Origin: an uncultured Rhodospirillaceae bacterium
GTDB taxonomy: Bacteria; Pseudomonadota; Alphaproteobacteria; UBA8366; GCA-2717185
DNA length: 64,000 nt
Direction of reading: 5' to 3'
Assembly (NCBI GenBank): GCA_964474755.1
Contig: CAYYUG010000010.1
Location: 12,407 to 76,406 of the forward strand
The notes under the pieces are model-generated. The model saw only the letters and a program-made list of their open reading frames with translations. It had not been told where the DNA came from and did no database searches. The translations under genes and the position numbers were made by a program. Below, piece by piece: positions 15,729-35,735 of the stretch (its first letter is position 1; each line of letters opens with the position of its first letter).

Positions 15729-16991
15729 TTACCGTCCTAAGGCCCTGTCGCTATCCGGATTATTGGAAAAATGGACGCGGATACGCTCTACGGCTGCATT
15801 ATTAATGGTGAAAGTCATCAGAAGACCACTCATCAGGACGGTGCCGGCCAGCAGCCACGAAAGGGTGTCGTAGCTAAATTGCGCGACCAGAACGCCGCCA
15901 ATGGCCGCGCCCGCGGCGGTGCCACCCCAATTGCTGCAGGAAATGACACCAGCAAGGGCCCCTCGAGAGGCACCGCCGGCCTCTGCGAGCAAGATCATGA
16001 GAACGGTCGTGACCGGCACGATCAGCAGCATGAATAGTCCTGCCACTGATACTGAGAACCAGGGCCCGCTTTCGAGGAAAAACACGCCTAGTCCTGGAAC
16101 AATCGCCGCCAGTAACAATCCGGCGGTTATGGAAAGCCGTCGGGTGCTGCCCCCGATTTTGCCGCCCAGTAGCGGTGCCGCCATCGCCCAGAGGGCGACT
16201 GCGGCCACTGGCAGAGCAACATCTACAGTCTTCAAGCTATAGGTCACGATCAGGAAAGCCGGAAAGAAGGTAACGATTACGCCCCAGGTGACACGCGCCA
16301 GAAAATTAGTCCCTGCCATGTACCATGTGACAGGGAGCGCGGCGACCTGGCGCAATCGTTGCGCCAGCGCAAGCCGGGCCGCTTTGCGCCGGTAATAGGG
16401 TAACAGCACGAATAAGGTTAGCGAGGTGCAGAGTAGTGTTACGCCCAAGACTAGAAAGGAGACGCGCCAACCTGCGAATTCGGCGAGCACGGCTGCCAAA
16501 GGCAGGCCTATGACGCTGCTTGTTCCCGGCTGCATGGTGATAATGGCAATCGACATGGGTCTGCGTGGAACGGGGAAGACGTCGCCGACCAGCGCGATGC
16601 AGGTAGGGGGCACCATGCCACCGCCAATCCCTACTAGAACGCTGAACCCCGCGGCTAAGGCAAATCCGGGCGCCATCGCAATGCCAAGAGTACCAGCCGC
16701 CAGGCAGCTGGTTCCGAGAAGCAGGACTGGCTTTCGGCCATAGGTGTCGGAGAAGGCCCCCGCGATCAGTGCTGTGGTTGCCCAGGCCGCGGCGGCAGTG
16801 GTCACAAGCTGTCCTGCCACCGGGACCGAGGTATCGAATGTGGCTGCCATATCTACCAACAGCGGCCCCATCATTGCCACCGCCGTGACGGCAAGAAAAA
16901 CCGCGAACGCCATGCTGCTCAGCAAGAGCATGAAGCCTATGTTGCTTATAGCGTGCCGTGATACCACGATCCGGTCCGTTCGAACGGCCAA
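15729..16991 (-). CDS. MFS transporter
   Basis: 420 aa, about 12 TM segments, with the DTYGRKP MFS loop motif. The ORF-track start is a TTG; an ATG at 16931 is an alternative. Confidence 0.8.
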   Translation of the reverse strand: MAVRTDRIVVSRHAISNIGFMLLLSSMAFAVFLAVTAVAMMGPLLVDMAATFDTSVPVAGQLVTTAAAAWATTALIAGAFSDTYGRKPVLLLGTSCLAAGTLGIAMAPGFALAAGFSVLVGIGGGMVPPTCIALVGDVFPVPRRPMSIAIITMQPGTSSVIGLPLAAVLAEFAGWRVSFLVLGVTLLCTSLTLFVLLPYYRRKAARLALAQRLRQVAALPVTWYMAGTNFLARVTWGVIVTFFPAFLIVTYSLKTVDVALPVAAVALWAMAAPLLGGKIGGSTRRLSITAGLLLAAIVPGLGVFFLESGPWFSVSVAGLFMLLIVPVTTVLMILLAEAGGASRGALAGVISCSNWGGTAAGAAIGGVLVAQFSYDTLSWLLAGTVLMSGLLMTFTINNAAVERIRVHFSNNPDSDRALGR

Positions 16992-19983: not shown

Positions 19984-20231
19984 GAAGGGTTCCTTGCACG
20001 AGTGAGTAAGGGGAGGGCGGCCGCTCCGCGTTGGCCGCCTTCTAATCGATTGGCTCAGGAAAATCCAGCCCCTGAAGGCGAAGTCGCCATTCGCAGGGGC
20101 TTATTGCTTTTCTATGAGGTGTCCGTACGCGTCCGTAACTCAGCTGCATAGAGCAGTTAATTCTGAAGTATTTATCATTATTAAGTTTTTTTTATGAATA
20201 AAAACAATGTTTTATAGAAAATATTGTCTCG

Positions 20232-20310
20232 AATTAACGATGTGTGAATGATTGGTGCATTATTGATGTAAGCAGTTTTAAATTAACGATAATTCTGATA
20301 TTGGTTCATT
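20232..20310 (+). repeat. two ~30-nt imperfect direct repeats upstream of the tRNA
   Basis: AATTAACGATGTGTGAATGATTGGTGCATT (20232-20261) and AATTAACGATAATTCTGATATTGGTTCATT (20281-20310) share 21 of 30 positions by my count. They lie in AT-rich DNA. Confidence 0.5.
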
Positions 20311-20316
20311 TCATAA

Positions 20317-20393
20317 GGGCCCGTAGCTCATCCGGATAGAGCGCGAGATTCCTAATCTCGAGGTAGCAGGTTCGAGTCCTGCCGGGCTCACCA
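20317..20393 (+). tRNA. tRNA-Arg (anticodon CCT)
   Basis: 77-nt cloverleaf folded by hand. Acceptor GGGCCCG/CGGGCTC (one G-U), D-arm GCTC/GAGC, anticodon stem CGAGA/TCTCG with loop TTCCTAA, T-arm GCAGG-TTCGAGT-CCTGC, discriminator A and an encoded CCA. Confidence 0.95.
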
Positions 20394-20617
20394 GTAATTA
20401 TCTCATATCAGCCTATAACGGCTTCTAGAGAGTGTTTTCAAACACATAGGCGCATTACCATCGGACCAATACTTTTATCTATTTAACAAATGGTTTGGAA
20501 TGCCTTGTCTGGACGTTTGGCAGGCATAACTGCCGAAAAAAATTGTAACTGGTAATCTTTTAAAGTTATTCCATGAGATGGTTTAGCGCGGAGTTTGCGA
20601 CTTACCCATTAATGATT

Positions 20618-20679: not shown

Positions 20680-20794
20680 TTTAGTTGAGATGCGGATGGT
20701 GGGTTCCGACCAATAGAAACAACCTGCGCGGAATTTGGCGATGACCAAGACGAGCGCAGCAAATCAACTTTCGAAATTCACGGAGTTATTTTAC

Positions 20795-22150
20795 ATGTCC
20801 GACAGCACCGTCCGGAGCATGAACCTCGCGGTATTTCTCACATCGTGCGGGAACTATCACCATTTAGGATGGCGGCACCCAGAAGCTTGGGTGGATGGCA
20901 GCACCAACATCAAACGATGGGTAGAGATGGCGGGAATAGCGGAGCGTGCGAAACTCGATATGCTTTTTATCGCCGATCAGATTGCCATCGTGGGAGGTGA
21001 AGAACTATCTGCTATCGAGAATAGCTCTAAAGTAAATCGCTTCGAACCGATGACTTTGCTTTCTGCTCTCACTGCGCACACTCAAAACATCGGCCTTGCG
21101 GGTACGTGCGCTACCAGCTACTCCGAGCCGTATACCGTCGCGCGGATGTTTGCCTCACTCGACCATCTATCAGGGGGCCGCGCAGGTTGGAACTGTGTGA
21201 CTGGAGGTCAGAAGGAAGAGGCCCAGAATTTTAGTCTTGAACGCCACGCGGCCCATGCGGACCGCTACGAGCGAGCTAATGAATTTGCAAATGTGGTGAT
21301 GGGACTGTGGGATAGTTTTGAAGAAGATGCCTTGGTCTACAACAAAGAAAGCGGACGTTTTTTTGACGCTTCCAAAATTCATACTCTCAACCACCGGGGC
21401 AAATATTTCTCCGTGCGTGGTCCACTTAATGTATCGCGTTCGCCCCAAGGGTGGCCTGTAGTAATTCAGGCTGGCGGATCAGATGAGACAATTGAGATGG
21501 CGTCAAGAATCGCGGATGTTCTTTTCACAGCCCAGGCAGATTTTGATTCTGCGCGTGATTTTTACCATCGGGTAAAGACTGCTGTATGCGCGCGGGGACG
21601 ACCGGCGGACTCTATCCGTGTTATGCCCGGGCTCTCGGTGTTTGTCGCTCCTACGCGCGAGGAAGCGGAAGATAAGTTTGATGCACTTCATGACATGGTT
21701 GATGTGAAGGATGCGATTGAAGGACTCAGCCGTCTCCTAGGAGGGGTCGACCTTTCCGACTTTGATCCGGAAGCACCAATGCCAGCGTTAGAAGGCAATG
21801 ACCTTCGTAAGAGTGGACCAGGCACATTCGTGCGAATTGGACGCGAGAACAACTACACACTGGGACAAGTAGCGGTGCAAGCAAAGGCCGCTCGCAACCA
21901 CTGTCTTGTCATAGGCACAGTTGAAGAGGTCGCGGATCACATGGAGAACTGGTTTCTAAATGGTGCCGCAGACGGCTTTAATCTGTTACCCGCGATAGTT
22001 CCTGGCACCTTGACTGACTTCTGTAAATTAGTGGTGCCTGAGCTTCAATCACGAGGTCTATTTCGCTCTGAATACGAAGGCGTGACATTGAGGGGGAACA
22101 TGGGCCTCGGAGGCCCTCGGATGAGCGATCGCCACGATTGGGCTCCTTAA
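20795..22150 (+). CDS. luciferase-like (LLM) FMN-dependent monooxygenase, NtaA/SnaA/DszA subfamily
   Basis: MNLAVFLTSCGNYHHLGWRHPEAW... is the typical N-terminus of this subfamily. Start set at ATG 20795 with GGAG 9 nt upstream; the ORF-track TTG at 20735 is less likely. Confidence 0.85.
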   Translation: MSDSTVRSMNLAVFLTSCGNYHHLGWRHPEAWVDGSTNIKRWVEMAGIAERAKLDMLFIADQIAIVGGEELSAIENSSKVNRFEPMTLLSALTAHTQNIGLAGTCATSYSEPYTVARMFASLDHLSGGRAGWNCVTGGQKEEAQNFSLERHAAHADRYERANEFANVVMGLWDSFEEDALVYNKESGRFFDASKIHTLNHRGKYFSVRGPLNVSRSPQGWPVVIQAGGSDETIEMASRIADVLFTAQADFDSARDFYHRVKTAVCARGRPADSIRVMPGLSVFVAPTREEAEDKFDALHDMVDVKDAIEGLSRLLGGVDLSDFDPEAPMPALEGNDLRKSGPGTFVRIGRENNYTLGQVAVQAKAARNHCLVIGTVEEVADHMENWFLNGAADGFNLLPAIVPGTLTDFCKLVVPELQSRGLFRSEYEGVTLRGNMGLGGPRMSDRHDWAP

Positions 22151-22432: not shown

Positions 22433-24814
22433 TCAGGCCTTTGCCGCTCTGTCCATTGCTTCAAGGATGCGGCGCGGCGTGTACGGTGTTTCGTTGAATT
22501 CTGCGCCGGTCACGGCGAAGGCATCGCGCAGCGCGTTGCCAATCGCAGCCGGCGGGGCGATGGTACCGCCTTCACCCATGCCCTTGAGACCGTATCGGGT
22601 GAATTTGGCGGGCGTCACTATGTGGCCGATCTTGATGTCGGGAACCTCAGTCGCACCTGGCAGTAAATAATCGGCGAATGTTGTAGCCAGAGGCTGGCCG
22701 TTCTCGTCGAAGACGCTTTCCTCATAGAGAGCGGTGCCTATGCCCTGCGCGACGCCACCAACAATCTGACCGTCGACGATCATCGGATTGACCACGTTAC
22801 CGCAATCCTCAACCACCGCGTAGTCCATCAGTTCTGCTGCGCCGGTTTGGGGATCGACCGCGATCACGGCGGCGTGGGTGGCGTAGGAAAAGACCCCCGT
22901 CGACTCATTTGGTTCGTAGGTCGCCGTCGCGTCCAGTGCAGGGTCGATGCCGTCTGGTAGTGCTTCCTGACGCAAATGGGCAATACGGGCAAGCTCCGCG
23001 ATGGGGATCGATCCGGTGCCGCCCCGCGCTTCCCCATGGGCGAACCGCACCAGTTCGACTGTGCACTGCAGATGATGGGCGGCGATGACAGCCAGCTTCT
23101 CTCGCAAGATGATACAGGCGTTAGAGACAGCGCCACCGCTCATCACCATGGAGCGTGAGGCGAAAGTCCCAAAACCAAACGGAGACATTCCGGTATCGCC
23201 GAACTTCACCATGATATTGTCAGGGTGGATGCTCAATTCCTCATGTGCGACCTGAGACAGGGTTGTTTCTAACCCTTGGCCGTGAGAATGAATGCCGACC
23301 AGCAGAACGAGTGTGCCGTCCGGATTGATCCGAGCCGTGGCGCTTTCGTAACCAGGAATGATAGGTGAGCCACGCCGTGTCCATTCCGCCGCGCCATGTG
23401 CTGTCTGTTCGGTGTAACTGGAGAGACCCACCCCCCAGAACCGGCCGTCCTCCGCGAGGCCCTGCCGGGCGCGGATGCCCTCATAGTCAACCAGGCTCGC
23501 CGCGCGGCGCACGCTTTCCGGGTAATCGCCATTGTCGAATCGCATGCCTCCAACCGCTTCGTAGGGCATCTTGTCGGCAGGCACCATGTTGGCTATGCGA
23601 ACATCCAACGGATCACGGCCGACCGCACGGGCGACCTCGTCGATGGTGCGCTCGATGGCGAAGCAGGCTCCGGGCCGTGCAACACCGCGATATACGCCCA
23701 GGGGCGGCTTGTTGGTCGCAACAGTCCAGGTCCGGCATCGCATGTGCTCTATCCGATACGGTCCCGTCAGATTGCGCGCCGCCATTCCGGTTTCCATAAA
23801 AGGACCCGAGTGCCAAAGCGCGTAGGCGCCTGCGTTGACGGTCAGTTCCGCATCGATGCCCTGAATCAACCCATCGTGGTTGGCGTAGGCGGTTACCCGG
23901 TAGACATGTTCGCGCGCCTGTGGTGCAGCCATCAGATGTTCGCGCCGATCCTCGAGCCATCGGATTGGCTTACCGGTTTCTAGCGCGATAGCACAGACGA
24001 CGATCTCCTCCGGCATGAGCCGGGCCTTTCCGCCAAACCCGCCGCCCACATCGGGGGCAATGATACGCAGTTGATGGGTCGGAAGGTTCAGCATTTGCGA
24101 CAGTCCGGTGCGCATCAGATGCGGGATCTGCGTTGACAGATAGACCAGCAATTCACTGGCCCGCTCGTCCCAGTGCGCCAGAACCGCGCGAGGTTCCAGT
24201 GGCGAAGTAGACTGCCGGTTCATCCGATAGTCCCGCGTGACCACCACTGGCGCGTTGCGGACGCTGTCGATATCGCCACCGGCGATGTCCGCCTGAACGA
24301 AGACATTGTCGCCCCATTCGTCATGTACCAGGGCGGGTGGGTCGTCACGCGCTACCAAAGGGTCGGACAGGGCCGGCATTTCTTCTATATCGGCAATGAG
24401 CGCGTCGGTCAGGTCCTCTGCTTCGGCCCTGTTGGAACCAAGGCAGGCCGCGATGCATTCCCCTGCGTAGCGAACTTTTTCTGTGGCGAGCGCATGATGA
24501 TCGGCCGGCTTGAAACCCGGTACGGAAGGCTCCACGCGAACTGGGTTGATGCGGGTCAATCTTGCGGCCGTGTAGACCCGGTCTTCCTTTCCTTCGGGGA
24601 TTTCGATCCCCAGCAAGCGACCATGCGCATGAGCGCTGCGGAGGAAAGCGACATCCAATGTTCCCGGGATCGTCACATCGGCGACGTACAGGCCCTTGCC
24701 GCGCAGAAAACGTTGGTCCTCCTTGCGCGGCAACCGTGCGCCGACGCCTAATGCCGTATCCTTGGAGTTAGTCACCTGGCTGCTTACACGCCACCGGGCA
24801 GCACGTGTGCCCAT
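22433..24814 (-). CDS. xanthine dehydrogenase/CoxL-family molybdopterin-binding large subunit (B)
   Basis: PRKEDQRFLRGKG N-terminal motif, APDVGGGFGGK, VYRGVARP and a C-terminal GLKGMGEGG glutamate loop. ATG 24814 overlaps the ubiD-family gene by 31 nt. An alternative GTG at 24775 lies 8 nt after that gene's stop. Confidence 0.85.
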   Translation of the reverse strand: MGTRAARWRVSSQVTNSKDTALGVGARLPRKEDQRFLRGKGLYVADVTIPGTLDVAFLRSAHAHGRLLGIEIPEGKEDRVYTAARLTRINPVRVEPSVPGFKPADHHALATEKVRYAGECIAACLGSNRAEAEDLTDALIADIEEMPALSDPLVARDDPPALVHDEWGDNVFVQADIAGGDIDSVRNAPVVVTRDYRMNRQSTSPLEPRAVLAHWDERASELLVYLSTQIPHLMRTGLSQMLNLPTHQLRIIAPDVGGGFGGKARLMPEEIVVCAIALETGKPIRWLEDRREHLMAAPQAREHVYRVTAYANHDGLIQGIDAELTVNAGAYALWHSGPFMETGMAARNLTGPYRIEHMRCRTWTVATNKPPLGVYRGVARPGACFAIERTIDEVARAVGRDPLDVRIANMVPADKMPYEAVGGMRFDNGDYPESVRRAASLVDYEGIRARQGLAEDGRFWGVGLSSYTEQTAHGAAEWTRRGSPIIPGYESATARINPDGTLVLLVGIHSHGQGLETTLSQVAHEELSIHPDNIMVKFGDTGMSPFGFGTFASRSMVMSGGAVSNACIILREKLAVIAAHHLQCTVELVRFAHGEARGGTGSIPIAELARIAHLRQEALPDGIDPALDATATYEPNESTGVFSYATHAAVIAVDPQTGAAELMDYAVVEDCGNVVNPMIVDGQIVGGVAQGIGTALYEESVFDENGQPLATTFADYLLPGATEVPDIKIGHIVTPAKFTRYGLKGMGEGGTIAPPAAIGNALRDAFAVTGAEFNETPYTPRRILEAMDRAAKA

Positions 24815-26238
24815 TTTTCCCGGATGCGGTCATCAAGTTCCCGGCTGGAGCGAGCGACGGTGGGAAAATCATCCATGCGGTCCCACGGCCGGCAGGCATC
24901 AATGACGACGCGCGAATTGCGTTTGTCCGTATCGCTGTCATAGCACATCGGATCGAGCGAGGTGCTCCAGCAGCCATCGAGCCTTTCCAAATCTATACGC
25001 GGATCGAAGCGAGTGCACATCGCCCACAGAACGTCGTTAGTGTTGGTTGGATCGATATCGTCATCGACGACGACAACCCAGCGGTTGGTGTAGCCGCCGG
25101 CGTAGCATTGCGAAGCGATCAGACCAGCCTGCTTGGAATGGCCTCCATAGCGTTGTTTGATCGAAACAGTCAGCCACAACCGGCTGCCGCCTGCCTCGTG
25201 TGCGCATACGCCTTGAATATCAGGAATACCCGCCGCTTCCAGCTGGTTCCACACGGCACCGCTACGATAGCTGCCCAAATAATATGTGTTGTCGTTTGGC
25301 GGTACGGCGGGGATCACCCCCAGCAGGACGGGATCGTCGCGATGCATGAAAGTCTCGATCCGGATGGCAGGTTGCCGCCGTTTACCCCCGGCATAGTATC
25401 CCGTCCATTCGCCGAGTGGCCCCTCTTCGATGAGATCGTCCTTCATGATGAATCCTTCGAAGGCGATCTCCGCATTGGCCGGGACGGGGATGCCGGTGCG
25501 CGGCATTTCCAGGGTTCGCACAGGTTCTCCGAAGATACCGCCGACCGCGTCGTATTCGCTAACCCCTTGTGGGATTTCCAGACCGGCGATCATCAGCAGG
25601 GTAGGATGCATGCCGGCTACGACGGCGACCGGGCATGGCTCACCTCTGCTATGATACTTGTCCATAATCAGGCGGCCATGCCGGCCTGGCGACATCATTA
25701 CAGAGGCAGTCTTCGGCCCGTGGGTTTGCACCCTGTAGGCACCGTAATTCACCCAACCCGTGTCCGGGTCTTTCATCACCACCATGCATCCGGTGCCGAT
25801 GAACGGGCCGCCATCATGTTCGTGCCAGGTCGGCGTCGGGATCGAAGTGATGTCAATGGCATCGCCCTCGATCACGTTTTCATGCAACGCGCCTGTGGTC
25901 ACGACCTCCGGCGCGCATTTTGGCGCGTTTTTCATATAGTCTCGCCACCACAGCACTAAGTCGAGCTCCGAACCATCGGCCGGTAGTCCAAGCGCGATAT
26001 TAATCCGCGCGACGGATGTCAGGACGTTGGCGAGCACGCGATGGCCTGTCGGGAAGCCCGGCACTTCGTCGAACAGGATTGCTGGATTACCCATTTGCCG
26101 CTGATAGAGATCGAGGATCCCACCAATCTCTTCGGTCGTCTCGGCACCCGTGATTGTCTTCAGCGCCCCTTCCGCCTCCACTGCCTCCATCCAGTGTCGG
26201 AGATCCTGGTCCCAGTTGCGTCCTGAACTATCCGCCAT
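24784..26238 (-). CDS. UbiD-family (prenylated-FMN dependent) aromatic acid decarboxylase
   Basis: About 484 aa. It has a UbiD N-terminal region (NPAILFDEVPGFP), the EEGPLGEWTGYY catalytic-loop pattern and a VVVVDDDIDP motif. Start at ATG 26238, preceded by AGGAGA. Confidence 0.9.
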   Translation of the reverse strand: MADSSGRNWDQDLRHWMEAVEAEGALKTITGAETTEEIGGILDLYQRQMGNPAILFDEVPGFPTGHRVLANVLTSVARINIALGLPADGSELDLVLWWRDYMKNAPKCAPEVVTTGALHENVIEGDAIDITSIPTPTWHEHDGGPFIGTGCMVVMKDPDTGWVNYGAYRVQTHGPKTASVMMSPGRHGRLIMDKYHSRGEPCPVAVVAGMHPTLLMIAGLEIPQGVSEYDAVGGIFGEPVRTLEMPRTGIPVPANAEIAFEGFIMKDDLIEEGPLGEWTGYYAGGKRRQPAIRIETFMHRDDPVLLGVIPAVPPNDNTYYLGSYRSGAVWNQLEAAGIPDIQGVCAHEAGGSRLWLTVSIKQRYGGHSKQAGLIASQCYAGGYTNRWVVVVDDDIDPTNTNDVLWAMCTRFDPRIDLERLDGCWSTSLDPMCYDSDTDKRNSRVVIDACRPWDRMDDFPTVARSSRELDDRIREKWAHVLPGGV

Positions 26239-26248
26239 TTTGGATCTC

Positions 26249-28636
26249 CTAAACCTTGCCCAGCGCATGCAGCACGGTTTCCGGTGTCATCGGCTGTGCC
26301 GTGACCACTGCATCAAAGGGGCGGAGTGCATTATTGACTGCGCACATGACAACGCCTGGTGCGGCTCCCGTTCCGGATTCGCCGGCTCCCTTGGCGCCAA
26401 GCTCTGACTCACTTGTTGGCGTTTCGATATGGGCGACTTCGATATCCGGCATTTCCGATGCCATTGGTGTGAGGTAATCAGCCATCGAGCCGTTCAGTAG
26501 CTGCCCGTTATCGTCGTATAGACAATGTTCGTAGAGCGCGCCGCCGAGACCCTGCACGCATCCACCGCGCACCTGCTCGTCGGCGAGGTTAGGGTTGATG
26601 ATGCGGCCGCAATCTTCGACCACCCAATGTTTCAGGAGACGGATAAATCCGGTGTCGACATCGACTTCCACATAAGCACCGTGAATACCGTTGGTGAAGA
26701 TGTAGGGCAGTCCGGTAAGCCGAAAGCGGCGGGTCGTTGATAAAGTGGGCTGATAGTCGTTTGGCAGCTCGCCTAGCTGGAAATGCCCAATACGGCCGAT
26801 TTCCGACAGGGAGATGCGCACTTCATCGCTACCCGCGGTGACGACGTTGCCGGCGACTATGTCGAGGGTCTGAGCATCGGACTGCAGCAGGATACCGGCC
26901 ATGCTGAGGATTTCCCGCCGCAAATCGCGGCTCGCCTGATAGACCGCTTCGCCGCCGATCGCCGTGGCGCGAGATGCGTAGGTGCCGCCGCCATAGGGCA
27001 CGGCATCCGTGTCACCTTCTATGACGCGGATGCTCTCAAGGGGTACGCCGAGCGCGGTGGCTGCGATCTGTCCCATGACTGTATCTACGCCCTGGCCTTG
27101 GTCGGTGACGCCGACGGTGCAAATCACACCGCCGGAGGGTTCTAGCTTGATCGTGCAGGCGTCCTGCGAGGCGATTGGGGCACCGCCTGAGCCGTAATAG
27201 CCCTGTGGGCCGGGCGCGGTACCCTTGATGAAGCCGGCTATGCCGATGCCGCGATGCACTCCCTGTTCGCGCAGAGCTTCTTGCTCTCGCTTTAGTCCCT
27301 CGTAATCCATCAGACCAACCAGCTTATCTAGGCATGCTTCGTGCGAAAGATCGTTGACCGGAACGCCTGATGGCGCAACATTCGGATAACCACCATCCGG
27401 CATCACGTTGCGGCGACGAAAAACCACGGGGTCCATGCCCAAGGTTTCGGCCGCACGGTCGACCATGTGCTCACCGACGGAGATGCCGATTGGATGGCCG
27501 ACAGCCCGGTATTGCGAGGTGGGCACCTTATTGAGATAGACCACGGTGGTCTTGGCGCGATAGTTCTGGAACTTGTACGGTCCGGCGGTAATATTAAGAA
27601 CTTGATTGGCTTCGAACACGCTGGTCCGTGGATAGGCGGAATAGGCGCCCACACCCGCTAAATCGTCGATTTCCACTGCTTGGATGTCACCTTCCTTGCT
27701 GACCGCGATGCGGGCGGAGATCTGGTGCTCGCGCGCGTGGATATCGGAGACGAAGGATTCTAATCGGTCGGCGATGAACTTCACTGGCCGCCCCAGTTGA
27801 ATAGATGCTGCGGTTGCGGCGACTTCGTCGCCGAAAGTATGAATTTTCAAGCCAAAGGATCCACCGACATCGGGCGCTATGATGCGGACATTGTGTTCTG
27901 GCACTCCGAGTGTTCGAGCGAAGACGGCCTGGATCATATGCGGAACCTGGCTGCTGGTATGAATAGTCAACCGCTGCGTGCCGGGATCATAGTCGGCGAG
28001 TAGTGCCCGCGGTTCGAGGCTAACCGCCGTGTGGCGGCCAAAAGAGAAATCTTCCTTGAGCACGATATCGGCCGAAGCAAAGGCATCGTCGACAGCGCCG
28101 CGATCGATTGTTTTAGTGAAGGCGAGATTGTCGCCGAGATCGGGATGCAGGACCGGTGTGTTCGCGTCGAGGGCCGTTTCGGCTTCTGTCGTTGGCGGGA
28201 TCACCTCCCACTCGATGGCAACTTGTTCGCAGGCATCTTCCGCCAGCGCTCGGCTCTCAGCTACGACCATGACAACCGGCTCCCCTTGCCAGCAGGCTCG
28301 GTCCACCGCCATCGCAAATTGAGGGGCAGATTTCATGCCTTCGAAACAAGACAGCGTACCGATCCAGGGACCGGTGCTTCGCTCGGCCAACTCCGCGCCA
28401 GTCATAATCAGCACGACACCTGGCATCGTTTCGGCTTCCGCGGCATCGATCTTGAGAATTCTGGCATGCGCGTGCGGGCTGCGCACAAATGCCGCATGGA
28501 CGGTACGTGGCAGACTTATGTCGTCCGTATAGCGGCCGCGACCAGCCACGGTCCGCCGCGCGCTCGTCCGGGAAAGTGAGCGGCCGATATGGCTGTTTGG
28601 CCCCTCGAACACGCTGTTGGAAACGCTGTCGTTCAT
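26249..28636 (-). CDS. xanthine dehydrogenase/CoxL-family molybdopterin-binding large subunit (A)
   Basis: 795 aa from ATG 28636 (ATGA overlap with the upstream 2Fe-2S gene). ARRTVAGRGRYTDD, APDVGGSFGLK, QYRAVGHP and GAKGAGESG motifs. The ORF-track start at 28816 lies inside the upstream gene. Confidence 0.85.
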   Translation of the reverse strand: MNDSVSNSVFEGPNSHIGRSLSRTSARRTVAGRGRYTDDISLPRTVHAAFVRSPHAHARILKIDAAEAETMPGVVLIMTGAELAERSTGPWIGTLSCFEGMKSAPQFAMAVDRACWQGEPVVMVVAESRALAEDACEQVAIEWEVIPPTTEAETALDANTPVLHPDLGDNLAFTKTIDRGAVDDAFASADIVLKEDFSFGRHTAVSLEPRALLADYDPGTQRLTIHTSSQVPHMIQAVFARTLGVPEHNVRIIAPDVGGSFGLKIHTFGDEVAATAASIQLGRPVKFIADRLESFVSDIHAREHQISARIAVSKEGDIQAVEIDDLAGVGAYSAYPRTSVFEANQVLNITAGPYKFQNYRAKTTVVYLNKVPTSQYRAVGHPIGISVGEHMVDRAAETLGMDPVVFRRRNVMPDGGYPNVAPSGVPVNDLSHEACLDKLVGLMDYEGLKREQEALREQGVHRGIGIAGFIKGTAPGPQGYYGSGGAPIASQDACTIKLEPSGGVICTVGVTDQGQGVDTVMGQIAATALGVPLESIRVIEGDTDAVPYGGGTYASRATAIGGEAVYQASRDLRREILSMAGILLQSDAQTLDIVAGNVVTAGSDEVRISLSEIGRIGHFQLGELPNDYQPTLSTTRRFRLTGLPYIFTNGIHGAYVEVDVDTGFIRLLKHWVVEDCGRIINPNLADEQVRGGCVQGLGGALYEHCLYDDNGQLLNGSMADYLTPMASEMPDIEVAHIETPTSESELGAKGAGESGTGAAPGVVMCAVNNALRPFDAVVTAQPMTPETVLHALGKV

Positions 28637-29121
28637 GACGCCTTCTCCAGCCGCTGTTTCAAGGTGGTTTCGACGGCATCGACGATTGCGTGATATCCGG
28701 TACAACGGCAGTAGTTGCCGGACAGGAATTCGCGAATTTCTGCGCGTGTTTTTGGTGTAGCCTCGCGTAGCAATTCCGCTGCGGTGATCAGCATTCCGGG
28801 TGTGCAGAAGCCGCATTGTAGAGCGTCACGTTCAACAAAATTTTCTTGCAGATCGGCGATTTCGCCGCTTGCCGTCAGCCCTTCGACGGTCTCGATGTTG
28901 GTGCCGTCCGCCTGTATGGCGAGGATCAGGCAGCCTCTCACCACATCGCCATCGAGGCGCACAGAACAGGCGCCGCAGATCCCATGCTCACAGCCCAGAT
29001 GGGAACCGGTTAGGGCAAGTTCGCCGCGAAGAAAATCGACCAGATGTTGACGTGCATCGACTAGCTTGGTCACCTTGTCGCCATTCACCGTGAGAGTGAT
29101 AGTCTTAGTCTCGTCGCTCAT
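28633..29121 (-). CDS. (2Fe-2S)-binding small subunit, CoxS/XdhC-N type (set 2)
   Basis: GCEHGICGACSV, CGFCTPGM and CRCTGY cluster motifs. ATG 29121 forms an ATGA overlap with the upstream FAD-subunit stop. Confidence 0.9.
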   Translation of the reverse strand: MSDETKTITLTVNGDKVTKLVDARQHLVDFLRGELALTGSHLGCEHGICGACSVRLDGDVVRGCLILAIQADGTNIETVEGLTASGEIADLQENFVERDALQCGFCTPGMLITAAELLREATPKTRAEIREFLSGNYCRCTGYHAIVDAVETTLKQRLEKAS

Positions 29122-29987
29122 GCCGCCCTCGCCCGCTCGATTGCGCAATCCAGCACGCGGCCAGTTAGCACGCGCTGTAGATGCAGCTTAAATTCAGCAC
29201 TGCCTTGCAGATTGTCCATCGGGTCCAGGTCTTTGGATAGGGCCGCAATCGCAGACGACCGGCTGTCCGCTGACCAGGGTTTCCCCGCGATCGCGGCGGC
29301 GGCATTCGATGCGAGTGTCGGCCGATCTTCGCTGGCAAAATAGACCAAACGCGCATCCGTGACGGTTTCTTCATCGATTTCAGCCGAGCAGGCGACACCG
29401 GCGATGGCAAAGTCTCCTTGTCGACGGCTTAGTTCCATGAAGGCGTGAAAGGTTTGAGAGCTCTGACAAGGGATTTGGATTTCAGTCAGCATCTCGTCTG
29501 GCTCCCGCTCAGTCTCGAATAAACCCTTGAAAAAATCTCCTGCCTTGACGTGTCGTTGCCCGCGCACGCTTTCGACCACGATCGTCGCATTAAGCGCCAA
29601 CGCGCAGGCCGGCAGCTCAGCCGCGGGATCGGCGAGCGCAATGCTGCCGCCGAATGTACCGCGATTGCGCACGGCAACATGGGCCACATGCGGCATTGCC
29701 TCTGCGATCAGGGGCAGGTGCTTGGCGACGATCGGCGATTGTAGGACCGACGTGTGCCGTGTCAGCGCTCCGATACGAACCATGTCGTCTTCGACAGAAA
29801 TTCCTTCGAGCGCATCAAGCCGATTGATATCGATCAATAGATCGGGCTTTGACAGCCGCATGTTTAGTGTAGGCATCAAACTCTGACCTCCTGCGAGGAT
29901 GTTTGCTTCATCCCTGTGTTCCGAAAGGAGTTCCAAAGCCTGTTCCACGCTTTCGGCGCGCGTATAGGTCAGTTTTGGTGATTTCAT
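29118..29987 (-). CDS. FAD-binding medium subunit, CoxM type (set 2)
   Basis: LAGGQSLMPTLNMRL and RNRGTFGGSIA FAD-binding patterns. Start set at ATG 29987 (MKSPKLTYTRAES); the ORF-track start at 30152 would run into the upstream gene. Confidence 0.85.
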   Translation of the reverse strand: MKSPKLTYTRAESVEQALELLSEHRDEANILAGGQSLMPTLNMRLSKPDLLIDINRLDALEGISVEDDMVRIGALTRHTSVLQSPIVAKHLPLIAEAMPHVAHVAVRNRGTFGGSIALADPAAELPACALALNATIVVESVRGQRHVKAGDFFKGLFETEREPDEMLTEIQIPCQSSQTFHAFMELSRRQGDFAIAGVACSAEIDEETVTDARLVYFASEDRPTLASNAAAAIAGKPWSADSRSSAIAALSKDLDPMDNLQGSAEFKLHLQRVLTGRVLDCAIERARAA

Positions 29988-30024
29988 GGTGCCATCCCCG
30001 CCCGATAGTGTCGCTCGCTCAAAT

Positions 30025-30513
30025 TTAGTTTCCTCTTTTTTCGATTGTTGCCCGCTGTACTTCCAGCACCGACATAATAGCGCGGACAATGCCGGCATAT
30101 CCGGTGCAGCGGCAAATGTTTCCTGCGAGTTCGAGGCGCACCCGATCCTCATCAGCGTTCGGTAGCCGGTTTACGATATCGCGTGCGGTGAATAGCATCG
30201 CGGGCGTGCAATAACCGCATTGTAGACCGTGATGTTCCGTGAACGCGTCTTGCAGTGCCGCGATTACTGGATCCGAATTGCTGCCCTCAATTGTCCGAAT
30301 ATCTGCTCCGTCGCAGCTAATCGCGAAGAGTATGCAGGATCGCACCGGTTCTTCGTCCACCAAGATCGTGCAGGCGCCGCATACTCCATGCTCGCAACCG
30401 AGATGAATACCGGTAAGCCGATGCTGTTCGCGCAGAAAATCGGCAAGTGTAGTTCTCGGCTCAACGGGTGCAGTGACCGTTTCACCATTGATTGTTAGTG
30501 AAACGTTCATCAT
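30025..30513 (-). CDS. (2Fe-2S)-binding small subunit, CoxS type (set 1)
   Basis: GCEHGVCGACTI, CGYCTPAM and CRCTGY. ATGA overlap with the upstream FAD-subunit gene. Confidence 0.9.
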   Translation of the reverse strand: MMNVSLTINGETVTAPVEPRTTLADFLREQHRLTGIHLGCEHGVCGACTILVDEEPVRSCILFAISCDGADIRTIEGSNSDPVIAALQDAFTEHHGLQCGYCTPAMLFTARDIVNRLPNADEDRVRLELAGNICRCTGYAGIVRAIMSVLEVQRATIEKRGN

Positions 30514-31340
30514 GTGCTGTAGGCCTGTGCAACTGCGCGCTGCAACGCAATCGCGTGCATCCGTAGCTTAAAAGGGTCGAACGCTTCGCCGGTTTCGGTT
30601 AGTGCCTTGCTCGCTGCCTCGGTATCAAAACGGGTGCCATCGGTTTGTGCGATTGTGGCGGCAGCAGATTCCAGTAGCAACGGTGCGGCCTCGGTTCCGG
30701 CGAGTACGAGCCGGGCGACCCTGGTTGTAGGATCGTATACATAGGCTCCGATCGACTCCGCGAATTCACCTGGTTTGCGGCAAATTTTGTAATAACCCCA
30801 TCGCGCCGCATCAGAAAGAATCGGTAACCGTACCCCACGCACAATTTCGTCTTCTTCGAGAGCGACCGTAAAGGCACTCTGTTGAAATGCGTTGATCCCG
30901 ATCTCCCGACTGCCTGCAGGGCCGTCGATGACTATATGCGCTCCCAATGCCCTCAAGGCCGCTGGCCAGTCCCCTGCTGGATCGGCATGGACAAGGCTGC
31001 CGCCAATAGTGCCTCGGTTGCGCACAGCGCGATAAGCGATGCCCGCGGCGACATGTACCATCATTCCTCGGGTTACATCGGGTAGTATCCCGTCTTCAAT
31101 GTTTGCGTGGGTCACCAGCGCCCCGACAAACAAATGATCGGTCGCCTGTGTTACCGCTTTCAAAGGTTCAAGGTCGCGAATATCAATAAGTCGATCCGGC
31201 CGCGCCAAGCGTAAATTCATCATGGGGCCGAGTGACTGACTACCTGCCAAAACTTTGCTGTCGCCTTCTATTGATGTCAGCGCTGTCACTGCCTCAGCCA
31301 AATCGCTAGTTTTTTTGTAGTCGAATTTTGCTGCTTTCAT
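30510..31340 (-). CDS. FAD-binding medium subunit, CoxM type (set 1); first gene of the operon
   Basis: LAGSQSLGPMMNLRL and RNRGTIGGSLVHADP patterns; 276 aa. Confidence 0.85.
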   Translation of the reverse strand: MKAAKFDYKKTSDLAEAVTALTSIEGDSKVLAGSQSLGPMMNLRLARPDRLIDIRDLEPLKAVTQATDHLFVGALVTHANIEDGILPDVTRGMMVHVAAGIAYRAVRNRGTIGGSLVHADPAGDWPAALRALGAHIVIDGPAGSREIGINAFQQSAFTVALEEDEIVRGVRLPILSDAARWGYYKICRKPGEFAESIGAYVYDPTTRVARLVLAGTEAAPLLLESAAATIAQTDGTRFDTEAASKALTETGEAFDPFKLRMHAIALQRAVAQAYST

Positions 31341-31829
31341 CGCTCTATCTTGAGCTTATCCCTGTAACCATGCCGGCCATGAAAGCATGGTATGGTATCG
31401 TGGGAGACAGCCGCAACGGTCAAGAGATCGAAAGTTTACCCGGTTGTCCGCAATTTAGATGGAGTAAAGATCGACGAAGAAACCGCTTTATCACCCAGCG
31501 TTGCCCTGCTTCGCCAACAATCTGAACAGGCGATTCTGTGCATCGTTGGCCGCCCTGGAGGCATGTGATTATGGTCTGGAACGGTTCGATCGGATCGCCA
31601 GCATGCTGGCCTGTTGGATAGGCGAAAGTGGGTTACCGGAGGGCTTCAATAGCTAGGTACGCTGCTTCAAACTACTCGGTGACGTGACGGCCTACACGGG
31701 CACTGCCGGCGAATGCAGGCCATCGACGATGCAAAGGGTCGTATCAAGTTTGGCGTCCAGGCAATCTGCCAGCGCGACTAGATTACCGCGCGGGGTTTGG
31801 CGAAGCTGTATATCCCTTGGCGGCAGAAG

Positions 31830-32681
31830 TTAAACCGGACGCGTCCCGTTCACCGTCACGCGGTTCATATAGCGTTTTTGTCCGGGATAGTCGTTCAGTG
31901 CCTTGTGCATGACGCAACGATTATCCCAGAAGGCTATTGAACCCTTCTCCCATCGGAAACGGCAGGTGAATTCCGGTCGATGGCTGTGGTCGAACAAAAA
32001 TTCGAGCAACGGCTTGCTCTCCGTTTCTGCCATGCCTTTGAAGCGGTGGGTGCGTGGCCGGCATACGAACAGCGCCTTACGGCCGGTTTCCGGATGGGTA
32101 CGTACCACTGGATGTTCCATTTCAGGTTCGTCTTCCTCGTCCGGGTCGTCGCGCAGTTTACTGGTCATCTTAGCATTGCGTTCTGGTGTTGCGTTGGGTG
32201 CCTGGACGCGGTTGTCGTGAACTGCGACTAGCTTATCCAGCATTTTGCGCATGCCTTCGGACAGGGCTTCGTAGGCGAGGTATTGGTTGGCAAATAGTGT
32301 ATCTCCGCCGACTGACGGTACGTCTAGCGCATAGAGAATTGAGCCTAGCGGTGGCTTCTCCAGATGGGTTAGATCCTGATGCCAACTGCCGCCGACAATC
32401 TTGGTGTGCTCGGGGTCCTTACGGATCGGGAAAATTTCCGGATGGCCCTCAAGTGGAACATAGCGCGGATGCACGTTCAGGCTGCCGAAGCGTCCGCCGA
32501 ATTTCTTGTGTTGATCCTCGGTTAAATCTTGGTCCCGGAAGAAGATAACGAGGTTCTCATGAAAGGCGCGTTGCACTTCCGCAAAGGTTTCATTGCCGAG
32601 ATCCTCCGACAGATCAACCCCAAAAATCTCTGCGCCACACCCGCCGGAGAGTGGTTTTACTTTGATGCGGTTGTAGGTCAC
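31830..32681 (-). CDS. TauD/TfdA-family Fe(II)/2-oxoglutarate dioxygenase (paralogue 1)
   Basis: 283 aa. WHQDLTH (HxD iron ligands), HPETGRKALF and FWDNRCVMH C-terminal motifs. Confidence 0.85.
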   Translation of the reverse strand: MTYNRIKVKPLSGGCGAEIFGVDLSEDLGNETFAEVQRAFHENLVIFFRDQDLTEDQHKKFGGRFGSLNVHPRYVPLEGHPEIFPIRKDPEHTKIVGGSWHQDLTHLEKPPLGSILYALDVPSVGGDTLFANQYLAYEALSEGMRKMLDKLVAVHDNRVQAPNATPERNAKMTSKLRDDPDEEDEPEMEHPVVRTHPETGRKALFVCRPRTHRFKGMAETESKPLLEFLFDHSHRPEFTCRFRWEKGSIAFWDNRCVMHKALNDYPGQKRYMNRVTVNGTRPV

Positions 32682-33847: not shown

Positions 33848-35290
33848 CTAGCTGTTAGCTGCCTCCCGCATCGCAGAGTAGGCTGACAGGGCCCGTTGTC
33901 GGCTTACGCGTAAATCGACGATGGGTCGCGGGTAGGTTTTGTCCAAAACGACGCCCGCTTCTATTAAGGTGGTCGCTGGCGTTCCCCATGGTTCGTGGAT
34001 GTGCTTCGCCGGCATTGCGGCGAGCTCTGGCACGTAGCGCCTCACATAGGTTCCCTCCGGGTCAAACTTTCGACCCTGCAGAACCGGGTTAAAGATCCGG
34101 AAATAAGGTGCTGCATCGGCTCCCGACCCGGCGACCCATTGCCAGCCAGCCGAGTTGTTGGCCAAGTCGGCGTCTACCAACTTATCCCAAAACCACGCCT
34201 CGCCCGCCCGCCAGTCAATTAGCAGGTTCTTGACCAGCAGGGACGCCACGATCATGCGCACCCGATTATGCATCCAACCGGTCTGCCACAATTCGCGCAT
34301 ACCCGCATCGACAATTGGAATCCCTGTCTGACCGCTCTGCCAGGCGCGCAGTCCATCGGGATCGTCGGGCCAGCGCATGTTCGCGAATTTGGCTTGAAAG
34401 GGCGCTTCCGGCAAGGTTGGCCAATGGAACAGTAGGTGTTTGGAGAACTCCCGCCACGCAAGCTCGCGTTGAAACGCGTGGCCCCCACCTGCAGTCTCCG
34501 GCGCAGCTTCGATCTTGGCTAGTGTAGCGTGCCAGCATTGGTGTGGACTGATTTCACCAAAATGTAGATGCGGCGATAGTCGGGAGGTCCCGGCAAAATC
34601 CGGCCGATTGCGCAACTCTGAATAATCCTTTAACGGGCCTTCTAGGAAATCGACCATCCTTGCACGGGCTCCTGCCTCACCTGGTTGCCAGGTTTCTCGC
34701 AACCCGCCGGCCCAGTCGGGTGCTGTCGGCAGCAATCGTAAATGCTCAAGCGAGTCTCCCGCCGGAACATATGCAGGAACTGGGATTGTTTTGGGCCGGA
34801 GCAGCGGAATTTTCGGCATTGGCGCACTCAGACAGGCTTTCCAGAACGGTGTGAAGACGCGGAAAGGGGTATCAGATTTTGTCCGCAGCGCTTCCGGTTC
34901 GAACAACAAATCGCCGGAAAAGCGTTTAATCACGAAGCCAGTATCGGCAAGCTCGTTTTCTGTAGCATGGGCCCAAGGTTCGTAAGCTCTAGTGAAGTAA
35001 AGCGCAGAGGCTCCAGTCTCCGCCATTAAGGTTTTCAAGACACTTAGTGCTGGGCCGCGGCGCAGGATCAATGGACATCCGAGTTGCGCTAAATCGCGCG
35101 CCAAGGCTGCGAGGCTGTTATGCAGCCACCAACGGCTCGCCTCACCCATCCTCCACACGCCTGGTGTTTTATCGTCAAGCACATAGACCGGTAGAACGGG
35201 CTGACCAGACTCACATGCAGCAGAGAGGGCACGATTGTCGCTTAAGCGAAGGTCATGCCGGAACCAGAACAGAACGGGGGCGGTGGACAT
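33848..35290 (-). CDS. phrB: deoxyribodipyrimidine photolyase (class I CPD photolyase/cryptochrome family)
   Basis: 480 aa. FWFRHDLRLSDNRAL N-terminal motif, a C-terminal FAD-binding region (TGIPIVDAGMREL..TGWMHNRVRM) and WQWVAGSGADAAPYFRIFNP. Confidence 0.9.
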   Translation of the reverse strand: MSTAPVLFWFRHDLRLSDNRALSAACESGQPVLPVYVLDDKTPGVWRMGEASRWWLHNSLAALARDLAQLGCPLILRRGPALSVLKTLMAETGASALYFTRAYEPWAHATENELADTGFVIKRFSGDLLFEPEALRTKSDTPFRVFTPFWKACLSAPMPKIPLLRPKTIPVPAYVPAGDSLEHLRLLPTAPDWAGGLRETWQPGEAGARARMVDFLEGPLKDYSELRNRPDFAGTSRLSPHLHFGEISPHQCWHATLAKIEAAPETAGGGHAFQRELAWREFSKHLLFHWPTLPEAPFQAKFANMRWPDDPDGLRAWQSGQTGIPIVDAGMRELWQTGWMHNRVRMIVASLLVKNLLIDWRAGEAWFWDKLVDADLANNSAGWQWVAGSGADAAPYFRIFNPVLQGRKFDPEGTYVRRYVPELAAMPAKHIHEPWGTPATTLIEAGVVLDKTYPRPIVDLRVSRQRALSAYSAMREAANS

Positions 35291-35410
35291 GGCGTATCTT
35301 CAGCTAATTTTTTTTATTTTACGCAAGACCTTACACAGCGGATCATGCGTGTTTGCGCTTGCGGTGGCAATCGATACCATCTTGGCTAGTCATGGTTTTG
35401 GGGCGGTGAT

Positions 35411-35734
35411 GTGAAAATCGAACGAACTGAAACGTTTCAGGTTCAATTGGAGGAAGGTACCACTTGCCAACGCAGCGAATTCGTTCGCATCTGGACCAAT
35501 GATGGTTTGTATGGCGCCGGCGAGGGCTTGTCCATGCAGGGCGAGACCTCTTCTCTGCTGGCGATCCAGCATGACAACGCGCCGGCTTGGATCGGCACTG
35601 ATCCGACCGACCACGCGGAGCCGCAGGACTGGCTGATGCACAAGCTGGTCAAGCAAGGACCGGAATGGAGGCTGACCGGCGTCCCCGCCGCATCGACGTC
35701 AACGCTTAACACACAGGAATTAAGGGGTAAGTAG
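35411..35734 (+). pseudogene. N-terminal remnant of an enolase-superfamily (mandelate racemase/muconate lactonizing enzyme) gene
   Basis: 107 codons with a GTG start. MKIERTETF...FVRIWTNDGLYGAGEG...IGTDPTD...W follows the MR_MLE N-domain pattern. It stops right after ..ELRGK (compare the family's DLKGK), 1 nt before the PrpD-family ATG. No barrel domain follows. Confidence 0.4.
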
Positions 35735-35735
35735 C

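Follow-up and report, generated by a model that had tools for sequence, protein, structure and literature searches.

The subject of this report is a seven-gene operon on the minus strand of a 64,000-nucleotide stretch of DNA (contig CAYYUG010000010.1, assembly GCA_964474755.1) from an uncultured Rhodospirillaceae bacterium, and this whole 64-kb stretch is referred to throughout as the window. Read from position 31340 down to 22433, the genes follow the order M1-S1-M2-S2-LA-UbiD-LB, in which M, S and L stand for the medium, small and large subunits of two predicted molybdenum hydroxylases, and UbiD for a predicted decarboxylase of the family that uses prenylated flavin mononucleotide (prFMN). 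An original prediction, made from the DNA letters alone, had proposed these seven genes with their positions, families and order, and both a check of the open reading frames (ORFs), each of the seven having a single terminal stop, and a Pfam search agree with it. The genes are as follows.

30510..31340, minus strand: M1, flavin adenine dinucleotide (FAD)-binding medium subunit, 276 amino acids (aa), predicted partner of LB; Pfam FAD_binding_5, E 9e-42
30025..30513, minus strand: S1, small subunit with 2x[2Fe-2S], 162 aa, predicted partner of LB; Pfam Fer2 and Fer2_2
29118..29987, minus strand: M2, FAD-binding medium subunit, 289 aa, predicted partner of LA; Pfam FAD_binding_5 and CO_deh_flav_C
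28633..29121, minus strand: S2, small subunit with 2x[2Fe-2S], 162 aa, predicted partner of LA; Pfam Fer2 and Fer2_2
26249..28636, minus strand: LA, molybdopterin-binding large subunit, 795 aa, CoxL/QorL-like; Pfam Ald_Xan_dh_C, MoCoBD_1 and MoCoBD_2
24784..26238, minus strand: UbiD-family (prFMN) decarboxylase, 484 aa, PhdA-like; Pfam UbiD_N, UbiD and UbiD_C
22433..24775, minus strand: LB, molybdopterin-binding large subunit, 780 aa, CoxL/QorL-like; the same three Pfam domains as LA

The junctions between these genes are also as they had been described. Four-nucleotide ATGA overlaps join M1 to S1, M2 to S2 and S2 to LA, a gap of 37 nucleotides (nt) separates S1 from M2, and a gap of 10 nt containing TAGGAGA separates LA from the UbiD gene, whose ATG is preceded by a Shine-Dalgarno-like AGGAGA 5 nt upstream (6-11 nt). 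Two starts had been offered for LB, an ATG at 24814 that would overlap the UbiD gene by 31 nt and a GTG at 24775, 8 nt past the UbiD stop, and only the second has stood. The LB orthologues in loci L010-L013 start at the equivalent site (MANSEDK, MTTEETK or MTTSENK versus (V)TNSKDTA in the window), the frame needed for the 31-nt overlap is closed in L012 and L013, and the NCBI annotation of the same organism (L005) gives an LB of 780 aa. The best LB start is therefore GTG 24775, the gene running from 22433 to 24775, and ATG 24814 is unsupported. All junctions are thus co-directional, with either 4-nt overlaps or gaps of 8-37 nt, in keeping with the compact unit originally described, and we infer that the seven genes are co-transcribed and form one transcription and translation unit. 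Synteny settles the predicted pairing of M1-S1 with LB and of M2-S2 with LA; since this pairing of M and S genes with L genes is seen at orthologous loci, the layout reads as a nested M1-S1-[M2-S2-LA]-UbiD-LB.

Both hydroxylase sets are intact. LA and LB each contain PF01315, PF02738 and PF20256 above the gathering scores. When aligned to QorL, the large subunit of quinoline 2-oxidoreductase, LA shows the molybdenum-site motifs SSQVPH (with the Gln), APDVGGSFGLK and KGAGESG (with the catalytic Glu), and LB shows STQIPH, APDVGGGFGGK and KGMGEGG at the same places. The eight cysteines of the small subunits are kept in S1 (C40/45/48/60 and C99/102/134/136) and in S2 (C44/49/52/64 and C103/106/138/140), in both cases with CX4CX2CX11C and CX2CX31CXC spacing. 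FAD binding is predicted for both medium subunits from the motifs AGSQSL and TIGGS in M1, and the canonical AGGQSL and TFGGS in M2. M1 gave no CO_deh_flav_C match at E<=0.001, yet it aligns with M2 across residues 1-270, and its orthologues elsewhere show the identical Pfam pattern of FAD_binding_5 without a CO_deh_flav_C match; for these two reasons the C-terminal domain of M1 is judged to be divergent, not missing. Identity between the two sets is 32% for LA and LB, 30% for M1 and M2, and 47% for S1 and S2; the sets are old paralogues and not a recent duplicate. The ratio of nonsynonymous to synonymous substitution rates (dN/dS) against L011 is 0.05-0.10 in all seven genes and 0.05 in M1, at a dS of approximately 1 for five genes, 1.2 for S1 and approximately 2 for M1. 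Strong purifying selection acts on all seven genes and neither hydroxylase set is decaying, so that, with every iron-sulphur and molybdenum-site residue present, the claim of two complete hydroxylases holds.

The closest solved relative of LA and LB is QorL (1T3Q), at approximately 460 bits over the full length (E 1e-136 for LA and 3e-137 for LB), followed by the CoxL of M. smegmatis at approximately 450 bits. No hydroxylase subunit reached an NCBIfam equivalog cut-off. The alignments to QorL and CoxL confirm that both large subunits keep the hallmarks of their family and lack the loop of the carbon monoxide (CO) dehydrogenases: where M. smegmatis CoxL has GGVAYACSFR, LA has NKVPTSQYRAVGHP (TSQYRAVGHP in the alignment) and LB has NKPPLGVYRGVARP (LGVYRGVARP in the alignment). 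LA and LB are accordingly predicted not to be CO dehydrogenases, and CO oxidation is as unlikely as had been thought. Strong, although sub-threshold, matches to the NCBIfam models of CO dehydrogenase, 4-hydroxybenzoyl-CoA reductase and the beta subunit of phenylphosphate carboxylase could suggest that the operon encodes one or more aerobic CO dehydrogenases, or an anaerobic phenol-type pair of phenylphosphate carboxylase and 4-hydroxybenzoyl-CoA reductase. However, the CO dehydrogenase models, with a cut-off of 991 bits, give only 465 and 447, the AYxCSFR loop is replaced in both large subunits, and coxD, coxE, coxF and coxG are absent among the annotated genes of the window. The reductase model TIGR03194, whose cut-off is 995 bits, gives 403 and 333, and M1 and M2, with 276 and 289 aa, are shorter than the beta-subunit model of 321 positions, only their N-terminal part of approximately 115 residues aligning best. 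The beta subunit of this reductase presumably carries an extra iron-sulphur insertion, for which M1 and M2 would have no room. The other phenylphosphate carboxylase subunits are not present, and we give almost no credence to an explanation of either of these kinds.

An explanation that deserves somewhat more weight is that one or both molybdenum enzymes oxidise an aromatic aldehyde to the acid, which the UbiD enzyme then decarboxylates, with no ring hydroxylation at all. The xanthine dehydrogenase (XDH) family, to which these enzymes belong, includes aldehyde oxidoreductases, and the top NCBIfam matches of LB, M1, M2, S1 and S2 are subunits of an archaeal glyceraldehyde dehydrogenase, although far below the cut-offs. 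Such a route would also explain why the UbiD gene is placed between two oxidoreductases. Against it, every equivalog score falls short of its cut-off, and aldehyde oxidoreductases score approximately 157 bits versus approximately 460 for the closest solved relatives, quinoline 2-oxidoreductase and CoxL. The sequences discriminate neither way between aldehyde oxidation and ring hydroxylation, and we consider the aldehyde route improbable.

The UbiD protein has the three-domain architecture of its family (PF20695, PF01977 and PF20696) and scores 266.7 bits with TIGR00148, above the cut-off of 244.85. In an alignment of 16 orthologues, residues N164, R169, H187, E228, E272 and E277 are invariant, and EGPLGEWTGY aligns to EGPFGEMHGY of Fdc1. 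The catalytic Glu-Arg-Glu of Fdc1 and its ligands of the metal and the prFMN phosphate are, we take it, N168, R173, H191, E233, E277 and E282, and the first four invariant residues of the window protein presumably correspond to Fdc1 positions by motif. The catalytic residues that align to the Fdc1 motif are therefore retained, which had been named as a check on the original reading. Its closest solved relative is PhdA (7PDA), with an E of 8e-113 and 43% identity over 463 aligned positions, while the other solved UbiD enzymes are far behind, namely HudA at 185 bits, Fdc1 at 157 bits and HmfF at 146-149 bits.

In order to survey the neighbourhood of this UbiD gene, species-representative genomes (one per species) were scanned with two conserved UbiD peptides, giving at least 583 relatives among at least 600 motif matches. 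The window proteins were then mapped onto the 10-kb flanks of the best 80 of these relatives, which have 66-93% UbiD identity, and the counts that follow refer to these best 80. The linkage is conserved across alphaproteobacteria, 48 of the 80 having an XDH-family L gene no more than 10 kb from the UbiD orthologue. LA-type L genes (55-92% identity) are present in 19, mostly in the order M2-S2-LA, and this order with all three genes detected was found in 13 loci, chiefly from marine Rhodospirillaceae metagenome-assembled genomes (MAGs); at such loci outside the clade of the window the block is divergent from the UbiD gene. LB-type L genes (48-87% identity) are present in 23, arranged as UbiD-LB-M1-S1 in several loci (for example, in the cultured Rhodoplanes roseus, where ABC genes follow) and as UbiD-M1-S1-LB in others, and M1 orthologues stand beside an LB-type L in L002, L037, L071, L015, L020, L038, L070/L092, L095 and L097. 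More distant L types occur in 17/80 and two or more L genes in 16/80. LA-type and LB-type genes occur together only in the marine clade of the window (L010-L014). Among single loci, L098 contains LA-UbiD without LB, and in L092 the UbiD gene is surrounded by three L genes and an NMT1-type ATP-binding cassette (ABC) importer; many orthologues of the window UbiD follow an ABC importer. XDH-family genes, together with one that is CoxG-like, are likewise found close to a UbiD homologue of 42% identity in Paraburkholderia. When the UbiD proteins are placed in a neighbour-joining tree, the type of partner tracks the clade, and the clade of the window forms a separate branch. Two paralogues of this UbiD, sharing 67-73% identity with the window protein, are present in each of L021, L023 and L063, where they flank XDH-family genes and stand in tandem or no more than a few kb apart.

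The database search for conservation of the neighbourhood found the full seven-gene order in L010-L013 and in L099, a more distant marine contig in which UbiD is 78%, LA 73%, LB 63% and M1 54% identical to the window proteins. The order has thus been retained through substantial divergence. At least three independent assemblies of the same organism (L005, L007 and L008) have all seven genes, the same proteins are found in marine metagenome assemblies and in the NCBI MAG GCA_036138995.1, and the organism is present in samples from Station ALOHA. At the species level its nearest genomes are marine MAGs of Rhodospirillaceae/Rhodospirillales. Because it recurs in independent assemblies and in diverged relatives, the arrangement is judged to be no chance juxtaposition. 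The public gene calls omit M2 in L004 (6346-7118) and S1 in L005 (1930-2453); tblastn finds S1 at full length in L005 and no M2 match covering at least half of the query in L004, and these omissions look like annotation or assembly gaps.

It could nonetheless be argued that the enzymes serve different pathways and that rearrangement has brought independent operons, or an operon and a stray gene, next to one another. LA-type and LB-type enzymes are separate in most genomes and come together only in the window clade, 32 of the 80 UbiD orthologues have no nearby molybdenum partner, and LA-like and LB-like enzymes (50-55%) occur without a UbiD on plasmids of Methylobacterium, Dinoroseobacter and Geminicoccaceae. 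However, dozens of genomes link each of the modules, separately, to this one UbiD orthogroup, the fused order with its overlaps and close spacing has been kept while M1 fell to 54% identity, and all genes are under similar purifying selection. We think that independence of the modules has only a small chance of being correct. The seven-gene interleaving is, from the comparison of loci, a lineage-specific fusion of two widespread modules, and a functional link between the UbiD enzyme and the hydroxylases is strongly backed by the same comparison.

We consider it reasonably probable that this is a catabolic operon whose three enzymes work on a single (hetero)aromatic carboxylate, or on a small family of such compounds, by two water-dependent hydroxylations and one prFMN-dependent decarboxylation. 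M2-S2-LA and M1-S1-LB would each insert a water-derived hydroxyl group at an electron-poor ring carbon, typically beside a ring nitrogen, with electrons flowing from the molybdenum cofactor through the 2x[2Fe-2S] clusters and FAD to an acceptor, and the UbiD enzyme would remove a ring carboxylate as CO2. Functions for making prFMN and for inserting the molybdenum cofactor would be supplied from elsewhere in the genome, a housekeeping ubiX being assumed. It speaks for this reading that the nearest characterised UbiD, PhdA, decarboxylates an N-heteroaromatic acid, phenazine-1-carboxylate, and that the nearest solved L subunit is that of quinoline 2-oxidoreductase. The most economical order may be hydroxylation, then decarboxylation, then hydroxylation of the freed carbon, which would amount to an O2-independent "decarboxylative hydroxylation". 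This order is drawn from the chemistry of the families and from the precedent of lumazine degradation, the end of which follows the same logic, with xanthine-8-carboxylate being converted to xanthine and then passed to a presumed xanthine oxidoreductase. The original prediction had already proposed two successive hydroxylations and a decarboxylation. The association of decarboxylase and hydroxylases that it implied is supported by the 48 of 80 loci, and the successive action on one substrate is its conjectural part: the hydroxylases may just as well work one before and one after the decarboxylation, or have two related compounds as their substrates, since each type pairs with UbiD alone in other genomes.

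We also put forward, tentatively and with more doubt than belief, a more specific proposal. In this O2-independent relay the PhdA-like UbiD would strip a carboxylate from a carbon beside the ring nitrogen, a molybdenum hydroxylase would then add a hydroxyl group from water to the freed carbon, and the second hydroxylase would treat the other alpha-position. The relay would be widespread, with the window as its most complete version, degrading a common marine N-heteroaromatic acid.

Several observations weigh against the interpretation of the operon as a three-enzyme catabolic unit. The 43% identity to PhdA and the similarity to QorL are too low for substrate specificity to be transferred from either. 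A complete second enzyme is not universal, since the LB-type L occurs without M1-S1 in L014, which has M2-S2-LA-UbiD-LB (LB-type L 79% identical, 11431-13797), and in L093, which has a one-strand M-S-L-UbiD with another type of L plus a lone LB-type L (70%, 14628-16946). This suggests that LB may be able to share the M and S subunits of another enzyme or to use ones encoded elsewhere. As mentioned above, 32 of the 80 orthologues have no XDH-family gene nearby, and one UbiD clade has Rieske oxygenases instead, so that dependence on a molybdenum partner is not strict. In this Defluviicoccus-related clade (L046, L049, L057, L059, L065, L069 and L076), genes for a Rieske (VanA-like) oxygenase, a FAD_binding_2-type flavoprotein, an amidase and a tripartite ATP-independent periplasmic (TRAP) permease are within a few kb of UbiD, molybdenum hydroxylase genes are absent, and the Rieske set looks like an alternative, O2-dependent set of partners. 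By tblastn, UbiX was found within 10 kb of the UbiD orthologue in none of the fetched loci (L010-L089, L092, L093, L098 and L099). Finally, no ring-cleavage or other downstream enzyme, importer or regulator is adjacent to the operon in the window, and the context of a pathway is thus missing.

The flanks agree with the earlier statement that no UbiX, XdhC/CoxF-type gene, regulator or transporter borders the operon: none of these adjoins it in a Pfam search of the long non-nested ORFs, and neither UbiX nor XdhC/CoxD-G was found in the 64-kb window by this search or, for UbiX, by tblastn with two UbiX proteins. The characterised catabolic UbiD enzymes compared here have UbiX or HmfG beside them or in their cluster, as is the case for the xanthine-8-carboxylate decarboxylase of lumazine degradation, for HmfF and for the UbiD family decarboxylase WP_011255033 of EbN1; UbiX is beside the UbiD genes in the lumazine-type cluster of pSymB and in the EbN1 plasmid island. 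The features around the operon are as follows.

31341..31829, minus strand: non-coding leader of 489 nt between the TauD-family gene and M1
31830-32681, minus strand: TauD-family dioxygenase gene, upstream of M1 across the 489-nt leader
20317-20393, plus strand: tRNA-Arg(CCT) gene, 2 kb downstream of the operon
15729-16991 and 39647-40846: major facilitator superfamily (MFS) transporter genes elsewhere in the window
37446-39334 (minus), 35736-37121 (plus), 12363-15506 (minus) and 41453-43234 (plus): surrounding catabolic genes

Within the leader, a block at approximately 31361-31400, some 20-60 nt upstream of the M1 start, is conserved with L011 and less so in L012, and it contains the palindrome CCATGCTTTCATGG at 31377-31390. 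This block is a candidate promoter/operator region. No Rfam family, and no riboswitch for the molybdenum cofactor or any other ligand, was found upstream of M1 (E<=1), and no sigma-70-like consensus was found in the 489-nt leader. Scans for promoter and terminator consensus gave counts not above those of shuffled sequence and are evidence neither for nor against internal signals.

A TauD gene is also upstream of the operon in L011 and L014, and TauD homologues are one or two genes from UbiD in L056, L084 and L089, which hints at a functional link between TauD and the operon. The window has three TauD/TfdA-family dioxygenase genes, the other two being at 44642-45532 and 50429-51265, both on the minus strand. 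Downstream and convergent to the operon are a luciferase-like monooxygenase gene (20735-22150, plus strand), the tRNA-Arg gene and bipA; a second luciferase-like monooxygenase gene is at 43374-44612 on the minus strand. The tRNA-Arg(CCT) gene lies within the stretch of lowest G+C in the window (0.39 at 20200-20599). Nothing points clearly to an origin of the operon in a genomic island, a possibility that was set aside, as its G+C of 0.58-0.61 is near that of the window and relatives keep the upstream TauD-family gene. The catabolic genes of the surrounding 30 kb include Rieske dioxygenase alpha and beta, MmgE/PrpD, a family III CoA-transferase, two thiamine diphosphate-dependent enzymes and MFS transporters, and no synteny linking them to the operon was seen in other genomes.

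Marine and soil alphaproteobacteria have many CoxL-like enzymes without the CO dehydrogenase signature, most of which are without an assigned substrate. The UbiD orthogroup described here is linked to at least three CoxL-like clades in 48 of the best 80 loci and could serve as a handle on them, in that the substrate of the decarboxylase would constrain the substrates of the hydroxylases. If the proposed relay is true, some of the orphan CoxL-like proteins, of which marine alphaproteobacteria have an abundance, would gain a function. If the substrate of the operon is a common natural heteroaromatic acid, a route would be added to the turnover of dissolved organic nitrogen. Two new biocatalysts that do not need O2 would also become available, one for regioselective hydroxylation and one for reversible (de)carboxylation. 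Should the operon be merely a lineage-specific fusion of ordinary catabolic modules, the result would be a useful annotation only.

Compared with characterised enzymes, the hydroxylases most resemble the CoxL-clade N-heterocycle hydroxylases QorMSL of Pseudomonas putida 86 (1T3Q) and KdhL (7DQX), which have the same M, S and L subunits. The Gln, the GGxFG motif and the catalytic Glu of QorL are common to LA and LB, and the loop is similar (AYRGVGF in QorL versus QYRAVGH in LA and VYRGVAR in LB); however, the relationship to Qor is distant, the active-site loops are not the same, and Qor has no associated decarboxylase. PhdA, the phenazine-1-carboxylate decarboxylase of Mycolicibacterium fortuitum, shares the three domains and the catalytic motif of the window UbiD and falls in one broad clade with it but differs too much in sequence for its substrate to be carried over, and no PhdB-type UbiX is near the window UbiD. 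To our knowledge, PhdA has not been linked to molybdenum hydroxylases.

The closest annotated plasmid homologue of the UbiD protein is WP_011255029 (44.5% identity), the third UbiD on plasmid 2 of A. aromaticum EbN1. Its gene (L090, 8911-10425) comes directly after an ABC importer and before porin and drug/metabolite transporter genes. UbiX, two more UbiD genes and CoA-transferase genes belong to the same island, but the locus differs from the window in having no XDH-family genes nearby. The binding proteins of the importers were considered as a clue to the ligand and set aside: the NMT1-type protein gives one weak PDB match (E 1e-6) without ligand information, and the binding protein of EbN1 shows no homology to its NMT1-type counterpart in the alphaproteobacterial loci. 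Homarine (N-methylpicolinate) catabolism was also considered and rejected, since the published marine pathway is the flavin-type homABCDER, which is unrelated.

Plasmid homologues of the hydroxylases carry generic annotation (LA-like 54-56%, LB-like approximately 50%) and have no UbiD with them. The LA-like enzyme of D. shibae (54%) has a TetR regulator and a TRAP importer as its flanking genes, a setting consistent with an organic acid as the substrate, and LB-like enzymes in Methylobacterium and a Geminicoccaceae strain are found with an amidohydrolase, an alpha/beta hydrolase and an ABC importer. On M. radiotolerans pMRAD01 (L095), an LA-like M-S-L (55%), an ABC importer and a CoxG beside uraH, a further uraH, uraD and a FAD oxidoreductase occupy 29841-32610 and 33984-37754. 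This hints that the M. radiotolerans enzyme may act on a purine-like compound.

The hmf clusters of furan degradation consist of hmfABCDE and hmfFG, in the order hmfABCDFGE in beta-proteobacteria, so that they resemble the window in having a UbiD gene inside an operon with L, M and S genes of a molybdenum hydroxylase (PMC8091172). The possibility was considered that the window encodes part of a pathway for hydroxymethylfurfural, furandicarboxylate (FDCA) or furoate, with the UbiD enzyme as the FDCA decarboxylase HmfF and one hydroxylase as the furoyl-CoA dehydrogenase HmfABC. The embedded UbiD gene favours it, but the window UbiD matches HmfF (6H6V) with an E of 9e-42 versus 8e-113 for PhdA. 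The hydroxylase of hmf acts on a CoA thioester. Neither a CoA ligase (the furoyl-CoA synthetase gene hmfD), a hydrolase (hmfE) nor a UbiX gene (hmfG) is present in or beside the operon, and no hydratase adjoins it. Membership of the operon in the hmf system is rejected on these grounds, and a furan pathway is highly improbable.

The nearest parallel is with lumazine degradation. In a search of the open-access literature on UbiD with pyridine-dicarboxylates, CoxL or xanthine dehydrogenase, the lumazine paper alone was relevant (PMC12391406). Lumazine cluster I of Cupriavidus sp. LA-1 encodes the lumazine dehydrogenase LuDH, a DHL isomerase, a UbiD-type xanthine-8-carboxylate decarboxylase and UbiX; the three-subunit molybdenum enzyme hydroxylates lumazine twice, the isomerase, of the amidohydrolase-2 type, gives xanthine-8-carboxylate, and UbiD/UbiX convert this to xanthine, which passes to a presumed xanthine oxidoreductase, a COX-group enzyme being known to oxidise xanthine in Cupriavidus (PMC12391406). 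A syntenic copy on S. meliloti pSymB (L094) contains two amidohydrolases, UbiD, UbiX, an NCS2 transporter, a GTPase, L-S-M and GntR. Cluster I resembles the window in bringing together an XDH-family hydroxylase of three subunits and a prFMN UbiD, here with an N-heteroaromatic carboxylate as its substrate, and its decarboxylation frees a carbon next to nitrogen. It is possible, then, that the operon is a variant of this pterin/lumazine cluster, encoding a lumazine dehydrogenase, a xanthine-8-carboxylate decarboxylase and a CoxL-type enzyme that oxidises xanthine. This would be in line with the only characterised bacterial system that was found to join such a hydroxylase and a UbiD, with the xanthine-oxidising enzyme of Cupriavidus and with the LA-like operon that adjoins uraH and uraD in M. 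radiotolerans. However, identity to the pSymB copy is only 30% for UbiD, 31% for LA and 29% for LB, the single operon of the window encodes two different hydroxylases, and the two amidohydrolase-2 isomerase subunits, GTP-binding protein, UbiX, deaminase, nucleobase transporter and GntR are absent from its neighbourhood, the sole Amidohydro_2 gene in the window (60729-61748) being approximately 29 kb from the operon. Orthology to the lumazine cluster is ruled out by these identities of approximately 30% and by the absent accessory genes, and a variant of it is very unlikely; the operon is best described, on sequence grounds, as analogous in logic to lumazine cluster I and not as a member of it.

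The belief, attached to the original prediction, that the characterised decarboxylases in such routes are not UbiD enzymes is outdated, as both lumazine cluster I (PMC12391406) and hmf (PMC8091172) use UbiD. The novelty claimed for the arrangement is upheld to the extent that no orthology to a characterised cluster was found, while its uniqueness is not, given the XDH/UbiD precedent and the fusion of widespread modules. The families are known, and so is the presence of a molybdenum hydroxylase and a UbiD in one cluster, as in lumazine and hmf. What appears uncharacterised in the literature searched is that several CoxL-like clades are partners of one PhdA-like UbiD orthogroup, together with the fusion of this partnership into a nested double-hydroxylase operon without a dedicated UbiX.

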